In this document: one piece after another, positions 15,030 to 48,326 of the stretch
How the letters are laid out: every line of letters starts with the position of its first letter
Position numbering within the stretch: position 1 is the stretch's first letter
Assembly (NCBI GenBank): GCA_965218095.1
Contig: OZ244587.1
Location: forward strand, 768,001 to 832,000
Direction: 5' to 3'
Source: Candidatus Poribacteria bacterium
Lineage (GTDB): Bacteria; Poribacteria; WGA-4E; PCPOR2b
DNA length: 64,000 nt
Notes under the pieces: generated by a model
Told to the model about the DNA's origin: nothing
Databases searched by the model: none
The model's input: only the letters and a program-made list of their open reading frames with translations
Made by a program: the position numbers and the translations under genes

Positions 15030-15437
15030 CTACTGCTGACTCGCAATTCTTAAACGATTCGTTGCACGAGCTAACGCCGCTTCCGCTTGTTCTAGATTGA
15101 TATTTGGATCGCGCGACGCAAGGTGTTCCACTGCGCGCTGCCGAGTGAGTTCTGCACGTTCAACATCAATTTCAGACGCCCACTCAGCGGTATCTGCCAA
15201 CACGGTGACGCCGGTGCGTAATACCTCAAAAACACCCCCACTGGTTGCGACGGATTGGGGCGTGTCAGATTCACGGATGCGGATTTCGCCAATATCCAAC
15301 ACAGTCAGAAAAGGAATGTGCCCGGCGAGGATCTCAAACGAGGCCAGTTCACCAGGGGCTCTCACACTGATAACCTCGCCTTCATAAATCAACTGTTGGG
15401 GTGTTCGGATTTCGAGATGTAATCTTTTTTCAAGCAT
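15030..15437 (-). CDS. atpC: ATP synthase F1 epsilon subunit
   Basis: 'EIRTPQ', 'EILAGHIP', 'SGGVFEV', 'EIDVERAE', 'ALARATNRL'. Confidence 0.95.
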   Translation of the reverse strand: MLEKRLHLEIRTPQQLIYEGEVISVRAPGELASFEILAGHIPFLTVLDIGEIRIRESDTPQSVATSGGVFEVLRTGVTVLADTAEWASEIDVERAELTRQRAVEHLASRDPNINLEQAEAALARATNRLRIASQQ

Positions 15438-15451
15438 AGTTATTTGGTTTG

Positions 15452-16861
15452 TTAATCCGCTGCCTCTTGTAATGTCTCGGATTTTGCCTGATCAAATGCC
15501 TCGTCAATCGTACCGATGTAAGCCAGAGCCTGCTCCGGGATCTCGTCGCAATCCCCTTTGAGAATTGCCTGACAACCCTCAACGGTATCCCCAATCCTGA
15601 CGTATTTCCCGGGTTTGCCGGTAAAGCGTTGTGCAACAAACATCGGCTGCGTCAGATACTTTTCTAACTTTCTTGCCCGTGAAACTGTCAACCTTTGATC
15701 GTCGGAGAGCTCGTCCACGCCTAAAATTGCGATAATGTCCTTCAAGCTCTCGTACTCCTGAAGAACCGCCTTCACCTGATGAGTCGTATCATAGTGTTCC
15801 TGACCGATAACGTCCGGGTTCAAAATACGGGAGGTAGAAGTCAGCGGATCGACAGCGGGAAAGCGTCCCATCTGCTGGATTGACCGTTCAAGCCGTGTCA
15901 CGGCGTCGAGGTGTCCAAAAACGGCGACAACCGCTGGGTCTGTATAGTCGTCAGCCGGAACATAAACTGCTTGGAATGAGGTAATCGAGCCCTGCTGTGT
16001 TGATGTAATTCGCTCTTGTAATTCTCCCATCTCCGTAGCCAGCGTTGGCTGGTATCCAACCGCGGAAGGCATACGCCCTAAAAGCGCGGAGACCTCACAG
16101 CCTGCGAGGGTAAAGCGGAAAACGTTGTCAATGAAGATTAACACATCCTGCCCTCCCTCATCGCGGAAGTATTCTGCTATAGAGAGTCCGGCAAGTCCAA
16201 CGCGCAACCGGGCACCCGGCGGTTCGTTCATCTGTCCAAAAACCATGGCGGTTTTATCGATTACGCCGTACTCGTCCATTTCCAACCAAAACTGATTCCC
16301 TTCGCGAGTCCGTTCCCCAATCCCGCAGAAAACGGAATAGCCACCGTGTTGGGTTGCGATATTATAGATTAGTTCGGCGACCAGTACCGTTTTTCCGACA
16401 CCCGCACCGCCGAGGAAACCGACCTTTCCACCTCTTGCAACCGGCTGAATCAGATCAATCACCTTGATTCCGGTTTCCAACATCTCTGAAACGGTGCTCA
16501 GTTCTACCGGAGGCGGTGGATGGCGGTGAATGGGATACCGCTGTGTTACTTCTACTTCGCCTGCTTCATCAATGGGCTGCCCGGTAACGTCGAAAACACG
16601 GCCTAGCACGGCGTCACCTACAGGCACGGAGATCGGCTCACCGAGATCGGTAGCGCGTGTGCCACGCACCAGTCCGTCGGTTGTGTCCATCGCGATAGCA
16701 CGGACTCGGTTTTCACCCAAGTGCTGTTGGACTTCAAGCACTAATGTCGTTCCATCCGCGCGCTGGACCTCGATTGCGTTAAGAATATCGGGCAATTTCC
16801 CCTCTGAAAAATCGAGGTCAACTCGTGCGCCGACGATTTCTAAAACTTTGCCTTCGTTCAT
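15452..16861 (-). CDS. atpD: ATP synthase F1 beta subunit
   Basis: [47 protein letters not shown]. Confidence 0.98.
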
Positions 16862-17147
16862 TATTTATCTCTCTTTCCATCAATTATTTATATTGCCAAT
16901 ACCATCGGCAGGATCTGGTTTGTTCACAAGGCATAACGCCGGGACCGTAAACTATTATCTTTTCCGTATGTCTTTTCCTATTCAATAAGACTGCCCCGAA
17001 CACCCGTTGGATTATAACCGGTGATGTTATTTTTTTATGAATTCTTTGACCGTTGAATCTTATGGTAAATTTTGCATTTTATGTGAGTGGAGACACGGTT
17101 CCCTGAACCCTAGGCCCATTCAGGGAGCCGGGTGCCAGCCTCAATAA

Positions 17148-17944
17148 CTATTCGTTGACGTAATCTGAACGCAGCTCAAACATAAGTTGAGTCACGCGAC
17201 TTGCTCGGTTTGGGAGTTCAGCATTAACAGCCCGTATCTCCTCCCGTTCTAGGCTTCTTCAACGCTATCAAATTCAAACTCAATGAACCGGTGTGGAGAT
17301 ACACCATAATAGTTGTCGTAAGATGCTATCCGTTTGACCTCTTCGGGTGCTTGTAGTGAGCCTGCAACAGACGCAACCCACTCCAGATACGCGGCTTTTC
17401 CACCAAGCGGGTAGTCAACTAAGTAAACCAGTTTAGCCATCCGGGTGGAATCTTCACTTTTCGAGTAATCGGAGCGCTGGATAAATACATGTGTACTCGC
17501 CTCACTGCTGTGATCTGGAAGTGCTGCGAGAATCGCAGCGATATCGGGACGATTCAGATATGTCGCCGCATCTGCGAAACTATCAAATTCAAACTCAACG
17601 AGTCGATGCGGATTCTCACCGCGGACATTATCGTAAGATGCTACCCGTTTGAGCTCTTCGGGTGCTTGTAGTGTCGGTGCAACAGTTGCAATTCATGCAA
17701 TATAGTCAGCTTTCCCACCGACCGGATAGTTGATTAACCACACCAACTTCACCGGAACACCTTCCATATCAGAGGCATCATCCATCTCGGTATCCATGGA
17801 CATCATGTCCATCGCATCAGTCATCTCATTATCCATGGATGACATCGTGTCCATCACCATATCTCTGGCGGTGTCACAACCGACTAAAGCAACTAGTGCT
17901 ATCAGAGCAACTAGAAACATACTTCCTAATTTGAACTTCATCAA
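17148..17944 (-). pseudogene. Lipoprotein with Met-rich linker and two tandem EthD-like domains, disrupted
   Basis: Lipobox LVGC; duplicated domain 'KLV.L..YP.GGKA.Y..W.A.VA..LQAPEE.KR.ASYDN..G..PHR..EFEFDS'; in-frame TGA at 17693-17695 where repeat 2 has Trp; frameshift near 17250. Confidence 0.8.
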
Positions 17945-18034
17945 TTGGTCTCCTTTGGTGCAAAGTAGATTAACTGTTAGGGGTAAGTCTTTGACTCACA
18001 TATCTTTGGGTTTTACGGTTTCATCGTAATAAAA

Positions 18035-46833: not shown

Positions 46834-46896
46834 CTTTTTTCTCCAAGCGTAAAGTGTGAAAAGCACTCACAAATGGCTTTCTTCTTACGTTTTACA

Positions 46897-47448
46897 TTAC
46901 GCATTCTGCCGCTCAAAGTTAAAGGTCTCACGTTCTCCACGACCACGTAGCGGATAGTCCTTACGAAGCGGGTGTCCTTCATAGTCATCGGGCATCAAGA
47001 TTCGGCGGAGGTCCGGATGATTCTCAAAGGTGATCCCAAACATATCGTAGGTTTCCCGCTCCAGCCAATCCGCGACCTTCCAGATTGACGCCATTGATGG
47101 GAGGCTGAGTTCTCTTTCATGAACGGGAACTTTGACACGCAAACGTTCTCTCTTTTCTGTTGAAAGCAGATGATAGACGACCATGAACCTCGCATAGTCG
47201 TATTTCATGAGGGCGTCTTCCATCAGGGAATAATCAACTGCTGTGACATCAGCAAGAAAGTTGTATGCGAGTTCTGAATCGTTTTTCAGGAACGCCATTA
47301 GTTCATAGATGGCATCTTTATGCACAACAATCGTCAGTTCGCCCCGTGCATCGGAAACGTCAAGGATCGCATCAGGGTATTTTTCTTGAACTTTTTGAAC
47401 GACAAGGGGCCGTTGTGCTTTAGCTGTTACCTCTTGCTCTTCACTCAT
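46897..47448 (-). CDS. nuoC: NADH-quinone oxidoreductase subunit C
   Basis: VTAVDY, WLERETYDMFGI.F..HPDLRRIL, HPLRKDYP. Confidence 0.97.
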   Translation of the reverse strand: MSEEQEVTAKAQRPLVVQKVQEKYPDAILDVSDARGELTIVVHKDAIYELMAFLKNDSELAYNFLADVTAVDYSLMEDALMKYDYARFMVVYHLLSTEKRERLRVKVPVHERELSLPSMASIWKVADWLERETYDMFGITFENHPDLRRILMPDDYEGHPLRKDYPLRGRGERETFNFERQNA

Positions 47449-47460
47449 TGGACTTATCCT

Positions 47461-47967
47461 CTAACTAGTACTAGCAATCGCACCTTTCTGCTTTCCAGGG
47501 GCGACACTCTCTCCTTCCACGATGCGTTGGATTTGCATCACGGCGTCAATGAGATCTTCAGGACGGGGTGGGCAGCCGGGGATGTAAATATCAACGGGAA
47601 TAAACTGATCAACGCCTTGTATTAAAGTATAGGTATCAAAAACACCGCCTGTGGAAGCGCATGCCCCCATTGAGATGACCCATTTGGGTTCAGGCATCTG
47701 ATCGTAGATTTTTTTCAAGACCGGCATCATTTTAATCGAGATGCGCCCCGAAACAATCAACAAATCCGACTGACGCGGCGAAAATCGAATGGCTTCCGCA
47801 CCGAAGCGGGAGAGGTCGAACTTCGACGCCAAGGCCGCCATCATTTCAATGGCACAACAGGCAGTGCCAAACGGCATCGGCCAGAGCGAGTTTTTTCGTC
47901 CCCAGTTCACAAACTTATCGATGGTAGTGGTGAATATATTGTCTCCCAGCTTACTTTCTAATCCCAT
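47461..47967 (-). CDS. nuoB: NADH-quinone oxidoreductase subunit B
   Basis: [31 protein letters not shown]. Confidence 0.98.
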
Positions 47968-48326
47968 GACAGACCACCTTTCTTCCAAGCGTAGATATAA
48001 CCTAAAAAGAGAATACCGATGAAGACCAGCATTTCAACGAGAATAAAATAGCCACTGGTCTCCGTGAATTTCTTAAAGACAATTGCCCATGGATAGAGAA
48101 ACACAACTTCAATATCAAAAATGATAAAGAGCATAGCGATTAGACTAAAGCGGATGGAAATCCGTTGGCGGGTATCTCCGACCGGCTGAACGCCGGATTC
48201 GTAGACAGAGAGTTTTGATTTCGTAGATTTCTTTGGCCCAACTAGGTGAGTGATCGCAAGATTCACTCCCGCGAAACCTATGGCAAAAAGCAGCAACAGG
48301 AGTATAGGTAAGTAATCGATTAACAT
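47958..48326 (-). CDS. nuoA: NADH-quinone oxidoreductase subunit A
   Basis: [29 protein letters not shown]. Confidence 0.97.

Follow-up and report, generated by a model that had tools for sequence, protein, structure and literature searches.

The subject of this study is a 64,000-nt window of a sponge-associated Poribacteria genome (assembly GCA_965218095.1, contig OZ244587.1, positions 768,001 to 832,000), in which the genes of respiratory Complex I (nuo) and of the F1Fo ATP synthase (atp) form a single run on the minus strand and non-core genes, here called passengers, occupy eight of the junctions between them. Taking into account the anatomy of the run, the content of the same junctions in related genomes and a search for integron-like features, we conclude with moderate confidence that these junctions are gene-flux hotspots embedded in an operon, shaped by illegitimate insertion, by homologous recombination at the conserved flanks and by selection for inserts that are co-oriented and free of terminators. 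The case does not in itself call for a new mechanism; it is a dense new example of known processes.

The run extends from 15030 to 48383 and spans 33,354 bp, as determined from the open reading frame (ORF) list and from Pfam searches on 44 minus-strand ORFs. It comprises nuoA to nuoN, without nuoI, followed by atpZIBEFHAGDC; from high to low coordinates the order is nuoA, B, C, D, E, F, G, H, J, K, L, M, N, atpZ, atpI, B, E, F, H, A, G, D, C. Each of the 23 core genes is intact: its domain match is full-length and no stop codon interrupts it. The nuo-atp join is direct, a 31-bp spacer leading from nuoN to atpZ, and the Complex I and F1Fo clusters are genuinely fused in this run. Gaps between adjacent core genes range from -31 to 84 bp, and around the passenger blocks they reach 387 bp. 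Non-core genes are present at the junctions D|E, F|G, G|H, H|J, L|M, M|N, atpI|B and atpG|D (nuo junctions are given by the letters of the flanking genes), and their blocks make up 12,246 bp, or 37%, of the run. A first-pass annotation made from this DNA had described a minus-strand run of about 33 kb with non-operon genes at these eight junctions, lying between core genes and never inside them; this description stands. The passengers, all on the minus strand, are the following:

45070-45502, minus, D|E: gene with a CarboxypepD_reg domain, a signal peptide and a C-terminal membrane anchor; frameshift past about codon 10
42046-42825, minus, F|G: ABC ATPase, intact
40386-42053, minus, F|G: 555-aa putative permease, intact, about 12 hydrophobic segments (12 transmembrane)
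38155-38698, minus, G|H: stack of a MazE-like/MazF remnant, MntA and a 34-codon ORF
38237-38539, minus, G|H (within the stack): MntA-type nucleotidyltransferase with its own start and an in-frame TAG
35914-36942, minus, H|J: RDD-family membrane protein gene (Pfam RDD, 2.2e-13), TAA at 36832-36834 and at 36289-36291
32549-32821, minus, L|M: 90-aa ORF (o90), 79% identical in the closest relative, L001 (see below)
32169-32549, minus, L|M: clan-AA aspartic protease, intact (NCBIfam TIGR03698, 1e-13)
29092-30627, minus, M|N: CitMHS_2 (NhaD-like) transporter, intact (Pfam, 4.2e-180)
25733-26896, minus, atpI|B: AT-rich block of 1.16 kb with a BtrH-like cysteine peptidase gene, GC 0.32-0.33
20358-20756, minus, atpG|D: cupin, intact (Pfam Cupin_2, 1e-19)
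18593-20368, minus, atpG|D: secreted protein with dockerin and Cu2_monoox_C-like parts, ATG at 20320
18035-18508, minus, atpG|D: DJC28_CD-domain protein, intact (Pfam, 8.6e-24)
17249-17944, minus, atpG|D: lipoprotein-like ORF with two internal repeats of about 100 aa, no family match

The CitMHS_2 passenger matches PF16980 with 599.7 bits over profile positions 2-448 of 448 and has about 12 hydrophobic segments, and the atlas look-alikes of the 555-aa protein at F|G are clusters named 'putative ABC transporter permease' (score 0.98). The MntA match reaches 45.9 bits, under the NCBIfam cut-off of 60. By eye, the 34-codon ORF that follows MntA resembled a HepT remnant; this was not confirmed, as no Pfam match was obtained even at E 5.

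The strand of the passengers is uniform. Among 28 plus-strand ORFs located in or beside the junction blocks, none has a match to a Pfam family, in agreement with the earlier statement that every passenger lies on the operon strand. When the window and its eight Poribacteria relatives are considered together, 17 of 17 passenger blocks supported by family or orthology are co-oriented with the operon, for which the probability would be 2^-17 if strand were free.

Many of the passengers are decaying. Six point lesions were found: a frameshift in the BtrH-like gene, which leaves 206 and 109 codons (26210-26830 and 25906-26235), the TAG in MntA, the two TAA codons in the RDD gene, the frameshift in the CarboxypepD_reg gene, and a TGA in the lipoprotein-like ORF (17693-17695), at a position where the sister repeat has Trp. 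Two truncations, the MazE-like and MazF pieces, were also confirmed. The 12.2 kb of passenger DNA thus hold six point lesions and two truncations, versus none in 20.7 kb of core genes; that all six point lesions should fall within passenger DNA has P = 0.0026 if lesions are spread evenly, and this argues for relaxed selection rather than for general sequence error. Intact relatives of the BtrH-like protein have about 308 aa (the best ones, of 307-309 aa with PF14399/PF27157, are 64-66% identical), so that the window copy is a broken member of its family; likewise, the MazEF remnants and the TAG-truncated MntA are broken members of toxin-antitoxin families. The gradient from intact gene through pseudogene to scar that had been proposed from a first reading is therefore real, with more lesions than had been listed. 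Regarding base composition, two passengers had been called visibly AT-rich; that holds clearly for the BtrH-like block (GC 0.32-0.33 against about 0.49), the next lowest values being those of MntA (0.39) and of the RDD tail (0.40).

To compare the junctions with those of other genomes, genome contigs were searched with NuoJ, which gave 80 loci with up to ±10 kb of sequence, eight of them from Poribacteria (L001 to L008) and 72 from other phyla. Window proteins were placed on these loci by tblastn, and ORFs in the gaps were scanned with Pfam and PADLOC. L001 is the closest relative: its core proteins are mostly 82-98% identical to those of the window, atpF and atpZ being at 72-78%. It is also the only one of the Poribacteria loci that shares with the window the link between nuo and atp, and the comparison between the two covers the nuo genes up to atpF.

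A single passenger is common to all the Poribacteria loci, the CitMHS_2 transporter gene at M|N, present in the seven of seven loci that reach this junction. In L002 and L007 its GTG start directly abuts the nuoM stop codon; the apparent ORFs of 1030-1069 aa in these two loci were considered as a possible NuoM-transporter fusion, which was rejected because a stop codon is followed there by the GTG start. Identical passengers at the same junctions in all relatives, as one ancient rearrangement would have left, are thus found at M|N and not at the other seven of the eight junctions. Among the window and the eight loci, content differs at D|E, F|G, G|H, H|J, K|L, L|M and atpI|B. At D|E, a glyoxalase gene together with an ORF of about 82-85 aa is present in L002, L003, L004 and L007 (orthologous at 71-89%) and damaged in L008, where both genes are split; L006 has the glyoxalase and no match for the small ORF. 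Additional genes at this junction are HicB-HicA plus Uma2 in L008, and Uma2 in L004 and L005. Instead of the glyoxalase, the CarboxypepD_reg gene occupies D|E in the window and in L001, whose copy is intact, with two domains and 232 aa. F|G is vacant in five loci, holds other ORFs in L004 and L005, and has the ABC pair in the window and L001 alone (95% identity for the ATPase and 88% for its 555-aa partner). At G|H, L001 has an intact MazE-like/MazF pair (PemK/MazF, 3.1e-27, with an overlapping upstream ORF of 95 codons) and L006 an ORF without family assignment; the junction is otherwise vacant. L|M contains DUF5069 in L002, L005 and L007, of which the first 40 codons or so are left as a scar in L003; a type II methylase in L005, split in L004; a YhgA-like transposase in L005; and o90 in the window and L001. 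At atpI|B, L001 has atpI and atpB a few bases apart with no insert. In all, the ABC pair, the CarboxypepD_reg gene and o90 are common to the window and L001 only; the RDD gene at H|J, the AT-rich BtrH-like gene and the MntA module belong to the window only; L001 alone has the intact MazEF pair and has lost the aspartic protease. No remnant of glyoxalase or DUF5069 was detected in the window by tblastn at E 0.01, and none of 20 opposite-strand gap ORFs of the Poribacteria relatives passes E 0.001.

A Uma2-family nuclease gene, of the same family as those at D|E in L004, L005 and L008, also lies in the window outside the run, at 62691-63191 (minus). Beyond nuoN, on its 3' side, L002, L003 and L007 have a gene for a GFO/IDH/MocA oxidoreductase, in L003 with an IS630-like element in between.

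These comparisons bear on the possibility that chimeric joins in a metagenome-assembled genome have put foreign DNA at the junctions. The very different base composition of the BtrH-like block (GC 0.32) and the presence of this block and of the RDD gene in the window alone speak for such an artefact. Against it, the independent, chromosome-scale L001 shows the same nuo-atp link, the same passengers at D|E, F|G, L|M and M|N, and homologous remnants at G|H; seven further assemblies have a similar style of occupancy; the boundaries of the inserts fall exactly in spacers, with flanking genes intact; and the window's own protein was located on a contig of 6.27 Mb. We regard an assembly artefact as extremely improbable.

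The comparison with L001 resolves single events. At G|H, the window retains a 147-bp MazEF remnant, 90% identical to L001 8254-8400, in which the 3' half of the gene for the MazE-like antitoxin is followed by codons 1 to 12 of MazF; then come MntA, the short ORF and the nuoH ribosome-binding region shared with L001. A deletion flush with the nuoG stop codon has removed the 5' half of this antitoxin gene. As the MazEF remnant is interrupted by MntA, a second module landed within the first one, and both toxins are gone. Insertions within older passengers thus affect MazF, at codon 12, and also DJC28, at codon 27. In the latter case the start of the dockerin gene is a 107-nt copy, 78-79% identical, of the DJC28 5' end (20240-20346 versus 18428-18534), which takes in the ribosome-binding region and the first 27 codons or so of DJC28; the joint looks as if the dockerin gene had entered the DJC28 5' end with a duplication, or as if a single crossover with a diverged copy had occurred. 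At L|M, L001 is without about 340 bp of the aspartic protease gene and has kept its last 45 nt or so, which identifies the event as a deletion in L001. Inserts of 1.16 kb (atpI|B) and 1.1 kb (H|J) in the window stand where short spacers are found in L001. The genes on either side are undamaged, and comparison of the two genomes revealed no convincing target duplications at either insert.

Recombination across the junctions was read from this same two-genome comparison. At third codon positions, the identity of window and L001 averages 67.6% over 4432 sites of the core genes and rises to 83.6% over the ABC pair (816 sites, p = 6e-20), within a block of 81-93% identity that runs from the middle of the ABC pair to about 550 bp into nuoG (window 42520-39810). 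In nuoF, it drops to 40-46% over a 450-bp block (44308-43861), in which window and L001 are 76.7% identical at the nucleotide level, no closer than either is to the other clade. Moreover, the L001 CitMHS_2 gene (15071-16858) is intact, has an insertion of about 80 aa and is 51-61% identical to every other Poribacteria copy, whereas these other copies are mutually 69-95% alike. Since the NuoM and NuoN proteins that flank it are 87-89% identical to those of the window, the L001 transporter looks like an in-place replacement by a distant homologue, with breakpoints at the nuoM 3' end and at the transporter 3' end. The mosaic blocks and the transporter replacement indicate that homologous recombination acts across the junctions.

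We then considered whether the passengers could be captured, promoterless, by a dedicated integron-like mechanism and set co-directionally at gene boundaries of highly expressed operons, as the first-pass annotation had proposed. All the passengers are co-oriented and stand at gene boundaries, and the cargo itself is suggestive: integron cargo is rich in toxin-antitoxin genes and small enzymes, and toxin-antitoxin, glyoxalase, cupin and small ORFs resemble what cassettes carry. Like a cassette array, the run shows small, mostly promoterless-looking genes in a row, with a promoter-like site upstream of nuoA. The search for the hallmarks of such a system was negative. No integrase or recombinase Pfam domain was found among 44 + 24 ORFs over 3-63.9 kb (ORFs of at least 100 aa outside the region), and neither transposase nor integrase domains occur among the ORFs scanned between 13.3 and 59.9 kb, as had been claimed; the nearest transposase is a DDE fragment at 61692-62048 (plus strand). 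Repeat searches over 14900-48700, which included no dedicated attC model, gave no attC-like hairpins and no recurrent direct or inverted repeats at the boundaries. Neither Rfam matches at gathering score nor tRNA or tmRNA genes were found in the window, so that a tRNA-type integration site is missing as well. The attC site is an imperfect inverted repeat of about 55-140 bp at the 3' end of a cassette, and at five junctions the spacers between passenger and next core gene, which measure -11 to 99 bp, leave too little room for one.

Junction motifs were also looked for, and no k-mer of at least 7 nt is common to at least 3 of the 16 insert boundaries. The exact 9-mer TAACCAAGT is found twice in the 64-kb window, both times at an insert boundary on the minus strand: at 26881-26889, where the BtrH block has its left edge, 8 nt past the atpI stop, and at 35847-35855, where the RDD block has its right edge, 24 nt ahead of the nuoJ start codon. 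Two exact matches in 128 kb are not much above the 0.5 or so expected, and with one mismatch allowed there are 6 versus about 10 expected; the signal is weak. This 9-mer, the copy of the DJC28 translation start region borne by the dockerin gene, and a junction occupancy several-fold above that of other phyla (see below) are in favour of an integron-like mechanism. Unlike integron arrays, however, the window has no intI, attI or attC that we could find, its passengers are interleaved with essential genes, and inserts lie within older passenger ORFs instead of at defined sites. In addition, ordinary transposases occur at or beside junctions of the relatives (YhgA-like at L|M in L005, IS630-like past nuoN in L003), and the same pattern is seen in unrelated phyla. 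We consider an integron-like mechanism very unlikely. Of the mechanism first proposed, the ongoing gain, replacement, loss and decay at the junctions are supported; the gene-dropping device, for which these searches gave no integrase, attC or boundary motif, is not.

The 72 loci from other phyla were used as a baseline. Gaps between consecutive nuo genes were estimated from tblastn, corrected for unaligned ends, and a junction was counted as occupied above 400 bp (700 bp for G|H, because of long NuoG, and 1000 bp for H|J, because of nuoI). In L001 to L008, 22 of 80 junctions are occupied (27.5%), versus 21 of 569 in the outgroup (3.7%; Fisher p = 9e-11, overstated as related genomes are counted as independent). 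Without the ancestral D|E and M|N, the corresponding figures are 9 of 67 (13.4%) and 16 of 480 (3.3%; p = 0.0015, with the same overstatement). The outgroup passengers supported by Pfam are all co-oriented and include CitMHS_2, HicB, MNT/HEPN, DUF5615, nucleotidyltransferases, glyoxalase, aspartic protease and glycosyltransferases, and none of four opposite-strand candidates has a family match. A Chitinophagales locus (L047, 660-6763) has three occupied nuo junctions, D|E, E|F and F|G, with the same cast of genes as in Poribacteria: nucleotidyltransferase, glyoxalase, aspartic protease, DUF4440 and MNT/HEPN, co-oriented. Other outgroup loci hold HicB, DUF5615 and DUF6036, and F|G of Fibrella has four genes of the glycosyltransferase type. 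That the co-oriented pattern and the same kinds of genes appear at lower density in Bacteroidota, Acidobacteriota and others is better explained by a general selection filter than by a machine specific to one lineage. As junctions D|E, F|G and L|M and similar kinds of genes recur across phyla, passengers should not be annotated as Complex I subunits from position alone. In five Acidobacteriota loci, atpB/atpE matches near nuoN suggested nuo-atp linkage there too; they lie on the opposite strand, are not comparable to the fusion in the window, and were set aside.

The hotspot account that we favour would proceed as follows. DNA would arrive by illegitimate recombination, the cargo being mostly small genes of the mobile or defence type (toxin-antitoxin, Uma2-type nucleases, methylases, peptidases) along with a few transporters and enzymes. 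Homologous recombination anchored in the conserved nuo and atp flanks would then move, replace or remove inserts. The operon being essential, survivors would be those that spare core coding sequence, run on the operon strand and lack strong terminators; the clean picture of co-oriented inserts between genes would arise because only such insertions survive in an essential operon. Each passenger retained would widen the dispensable target, so that later inserts would hit older passengers; stacking and recurrent junctions would follow because dispensable passenger DNA is the preferred landing ground. Finally, most passengers would decay and a minority would be kept. The anatomy of the run, the turnover and decay of its passengers, the recombination mosaics and, within the searches made, the lack of integron features are observed; the mode of first entry, the selection filter and co-transcription are what we infer here.

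Several points weigh against this account. Co-transcription, and with it the polarity argument, is judged from gene spacing and from simple terminator and promoter scans. The inserts unique to the window are known from the assembly alone. The block of high identity reflects recombination over an ABC pair that was already present, and not its first arrival. The gene ends in the outgroup are tblastn estimates, and the occupancy tests carry the overstated significance already mentioned; even so, the roughly 7-fold excess of occupied junctions in Poribacteria is beyond what the filter alone would give, and a higher influx would be required. The duplicated ribosome-binding region and 27 DJC28 codons before the dockerin gene, and more weakly TAACCAAGT at two boundaries, hint at something more specific.

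A further possible reading is a directional insertion process, hitherto unrecognised, in Poribacteria and to a lesser degree in Bacteroidota and Acidobacteriota, by which transcribed operons would receive small genes, selfish ones or cargo, on their coding strand. It could act by copying the translation-start region of the downstream gene, as the dockerin/DJC28 joint might illustrate, or by strand-specific integration coupled to transcription or replication. Co-orientation and placement at boundaries would then be made in part by the mechanism and not by selection alone, and essential respiratory operons would shelter mobile toxin-antitoxin and defence genes and provide for their expression. 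We judge this process unlikely.

A different question is whether the passengers are mostly functional recruits, that is, partners, accessory or co-regulated, that were placed in the operon to be expressed together with Complex I and ATP synthase. The best case is the transporter: besides its presence at M|N in all seven Poribacteria loci and its abutment on the nuoM stop in L002 and L007, CitMHS_2 lies between nuoM and nuoN in an uncultured Rhodothermales (L025, 40% identity) and adjoins nuoJKLMN in a KSB1 locus. The complex I cluster of Rhodothermus marinus reportedly includes nhaD and pcd, in work attributed to Melo et al. in 2005. It would share with the window an NhaD-type transporter gene among genes of the membrane arm; there, however, the extra genes are said to form a stable pair, whereas the window transporter is one conserved passenger among variable and decaying ones. 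Glyoxalase with its ORF of about 85 aa, and DUF5069, are each kept in several species, and the ABC pair is intact in two species at 88-95% identity. Recruitment accounts for this subset and not for the overall pattern: six window passengers have disabling lesions, many are of the toxin-antitoxin or defence type, and contents vary between close relatives, the window lineage having lost or exchanged the glyoxalase and DUF5069 blocks without a trace that tblastn could find. That the passengers are mostly recruits seems doubtful to us. Within the hotspot account a minority of them are probably functional, CitMHS_2 first; the kept minority includes CitMHS_2 clearly, and possibly the ABC pair, the glyoxalase block and, in other lineages, DUF5069, and these kept passengers may be functionally tied to the complex. 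CitMHS_2, a putative Na+/H+ antiporter, is conserved enough to justify a functional test together with Complex I.

Our literature search found no description of a Poribacteria nuo-atp run or of passengers at nuo junctions. The processes that we invoke have been described separately. Operons gain ORFan genes by insertion, using the native promoter, and can fuse with an extra gene at the seam, as in sdhCDAB-b0725-sucABCD; in-place replacement of operon genes by diverged homologues is also described, by a mechanism called unclear (Price, Arkin and Alm 2006, PMC1480536). The junction passengers, the nuo-atp join, the CitMHS_2 swap in L001 and the absence of mobile-element hallmarks resemble the operon remodelling set out in that paper. 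The window differs in its extreme density: in a single essential run of 33 kb, eight junctions are occupied and 37% of the DNA belongs to passengers; unlike the cases given there, its passengers are largely of the toxin-antitoxin or defence type, and many are decaying; and unlike sdhCDAB-b0725-sucABCD, its join is direct, with 31 bp and no ORFan in between. Many transfer hotspots contain no mobile-element genes, and homologous recombination is raised in the core genes beside them (Oliveira et al. 2017, PMC5635113). The window agrees with them in that gene content varies between identical pairs of conserved core genes, that its spots hold neither integrase nor transposase, and that flanking core genes bear signs of recombination, here from two genomes and not from populations. 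Those hotspots are defined at the species level and usually measure kilobases to tens of kilobases, whereas ours are tiny spots in a single operon; being inside one operon, they add orientation and read-through as constraints. Toxin-antitoxin and defence genes are enriched genome-wide in sponge symbionts (Slaby et al. 2017, PMC5649159), and the passengers include MazEF, MntA, HicAB, a Uma2-type nuclease and a type II methylase; unlike that genome-wide enrichment, these genes are placed inside a respiratory operon. The simplest account is a combination of a high flux of small mobile and defence genes in the background of sponge symbionts (PMC5649159), operon remodelling (PMC1480536) and hotspot turnover without integrase, by homologous recombination at conserved flanks (PMC5635113). 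The window offers an unusually dense and well-resolved case of an essential multi-subunit operon that tolerates foreign DNA, with passengers from intact to scar, and in which sister genomes resolve single gains, deletions, overwrites and one in-place replacement. Spacers internal to an operon can thus act as miniature transfer hotspots.

The core genes and the candidate signals at both ends of the run are as follows:

48473-48501, minus: sigma-70-like promoter match (TTGACA, 17 nt, TG-GAAAAT), a consensus match about 90 bp upstream of the nuoA ORF
45637-48383, minus: nuoD, nuoC, nuoB and nuoA (nuoA at 47958-48383), intact (Pfam)
42961-44970, minus: nuoF and nuoE, intact (Pfam)
38692-40362, minus: nuoG, short form of 556 aa, intact (Pfam)
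36959-38143, minus: nuoH, intact (Pfam); the next core gene is nuoJ
32844-35823, minus: nuoL, nuoK and nuoJ, intact (Pfam)
30584-32179, minus: nuoM, intact (Pfam)
27625-29055, minus: nuoN, intact (Pfam)
27315-27593, minus: atpZ/ATPase_gene1 (Pfam)
26897-27313, minus: atpI (Pfam)
20805-25732, minus: atpG, atpA, atpH, atpF, atpE and atpB, intact, spacing -4 to 84 bp
15452-16861, minus: atpD, intact (Pfam ATP-synt_ab)
15030-15437, minus: atpC, intact (Pfam ATP-synt_DE_N/DE)
14964-15003, minus: intrinsic-terminator-like hairpin of 16 pairs with a T run, directly past atpC, the only strong one that ends a gene block

A simple terminator scan of all junctions found no strong terminator-like site on the operon strand within those occupied by passengers; a second terminator-like hairpin on this strand lies between atpB and atpE. 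From strand, spacing and the consensus terminator and promoter matches, a single 33-kb transcript is plausible. Stable hairpins were observed in two spacers between core genes, atpB-atpE (24864-24887) and atpE-atpF (24428-24470), both on the minus strand; they may be elements of processing or translation control instead of terminators.

Regarding nuoI, no 4Fe-4S ferredoxin motif (CxxCxxCxxxC[P/A/G/S]) is present in any of the six frames of the whole window. The gene is not at H|J in the window, nor in any of the eight related Poribacteria loci (about 55 bp at this point, around 9940-10000 in L001-L008), and as it is equally absent from H|J of all eight, it was not displaced by the H|J insert. 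In 23 outgroup loci, most of them from Acidobacteriota and others from Eisenbacteria and Methylomirabilis, nuoH and nuoJ likewise have no nuoI between them. The gene must be encoded elsewhere.

Upstream of the nuo promoter region there is a short-chain dehydrogenase gene (49027-49678, minus), split by a frameshift into two overlapping ORFs; a gene for a membrane protein with a PGPGW motif is located between it and nuoA. Further upstream, 50387-54625 (minus) encodes a protein of 1412 aa with leucine-rich repeats, cohesin, dockerin, a planctomycete cytochrome c domain and a Por-secretion tail; the dockerin domain is common to this protein and to the atpG|D passenger. Next to it, a Ni_insertion (LarC-type) gene at 54693-55924 (minus) consists of two ORFs in different frames, 20 nt apart, and could be a pseudogene or a frameshifted larC1/larC2 arrangement, as known from lactobacilli. 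Genes for malate/lactate dehydrogenase, isocitrate dehydrogenase and a citrate-synthase-like protein occupy 56104-59978 (minus), upstream of nuo and on the same strand, so that the minus-strand energy-metabolism series reaches well past the nuo-atp run.

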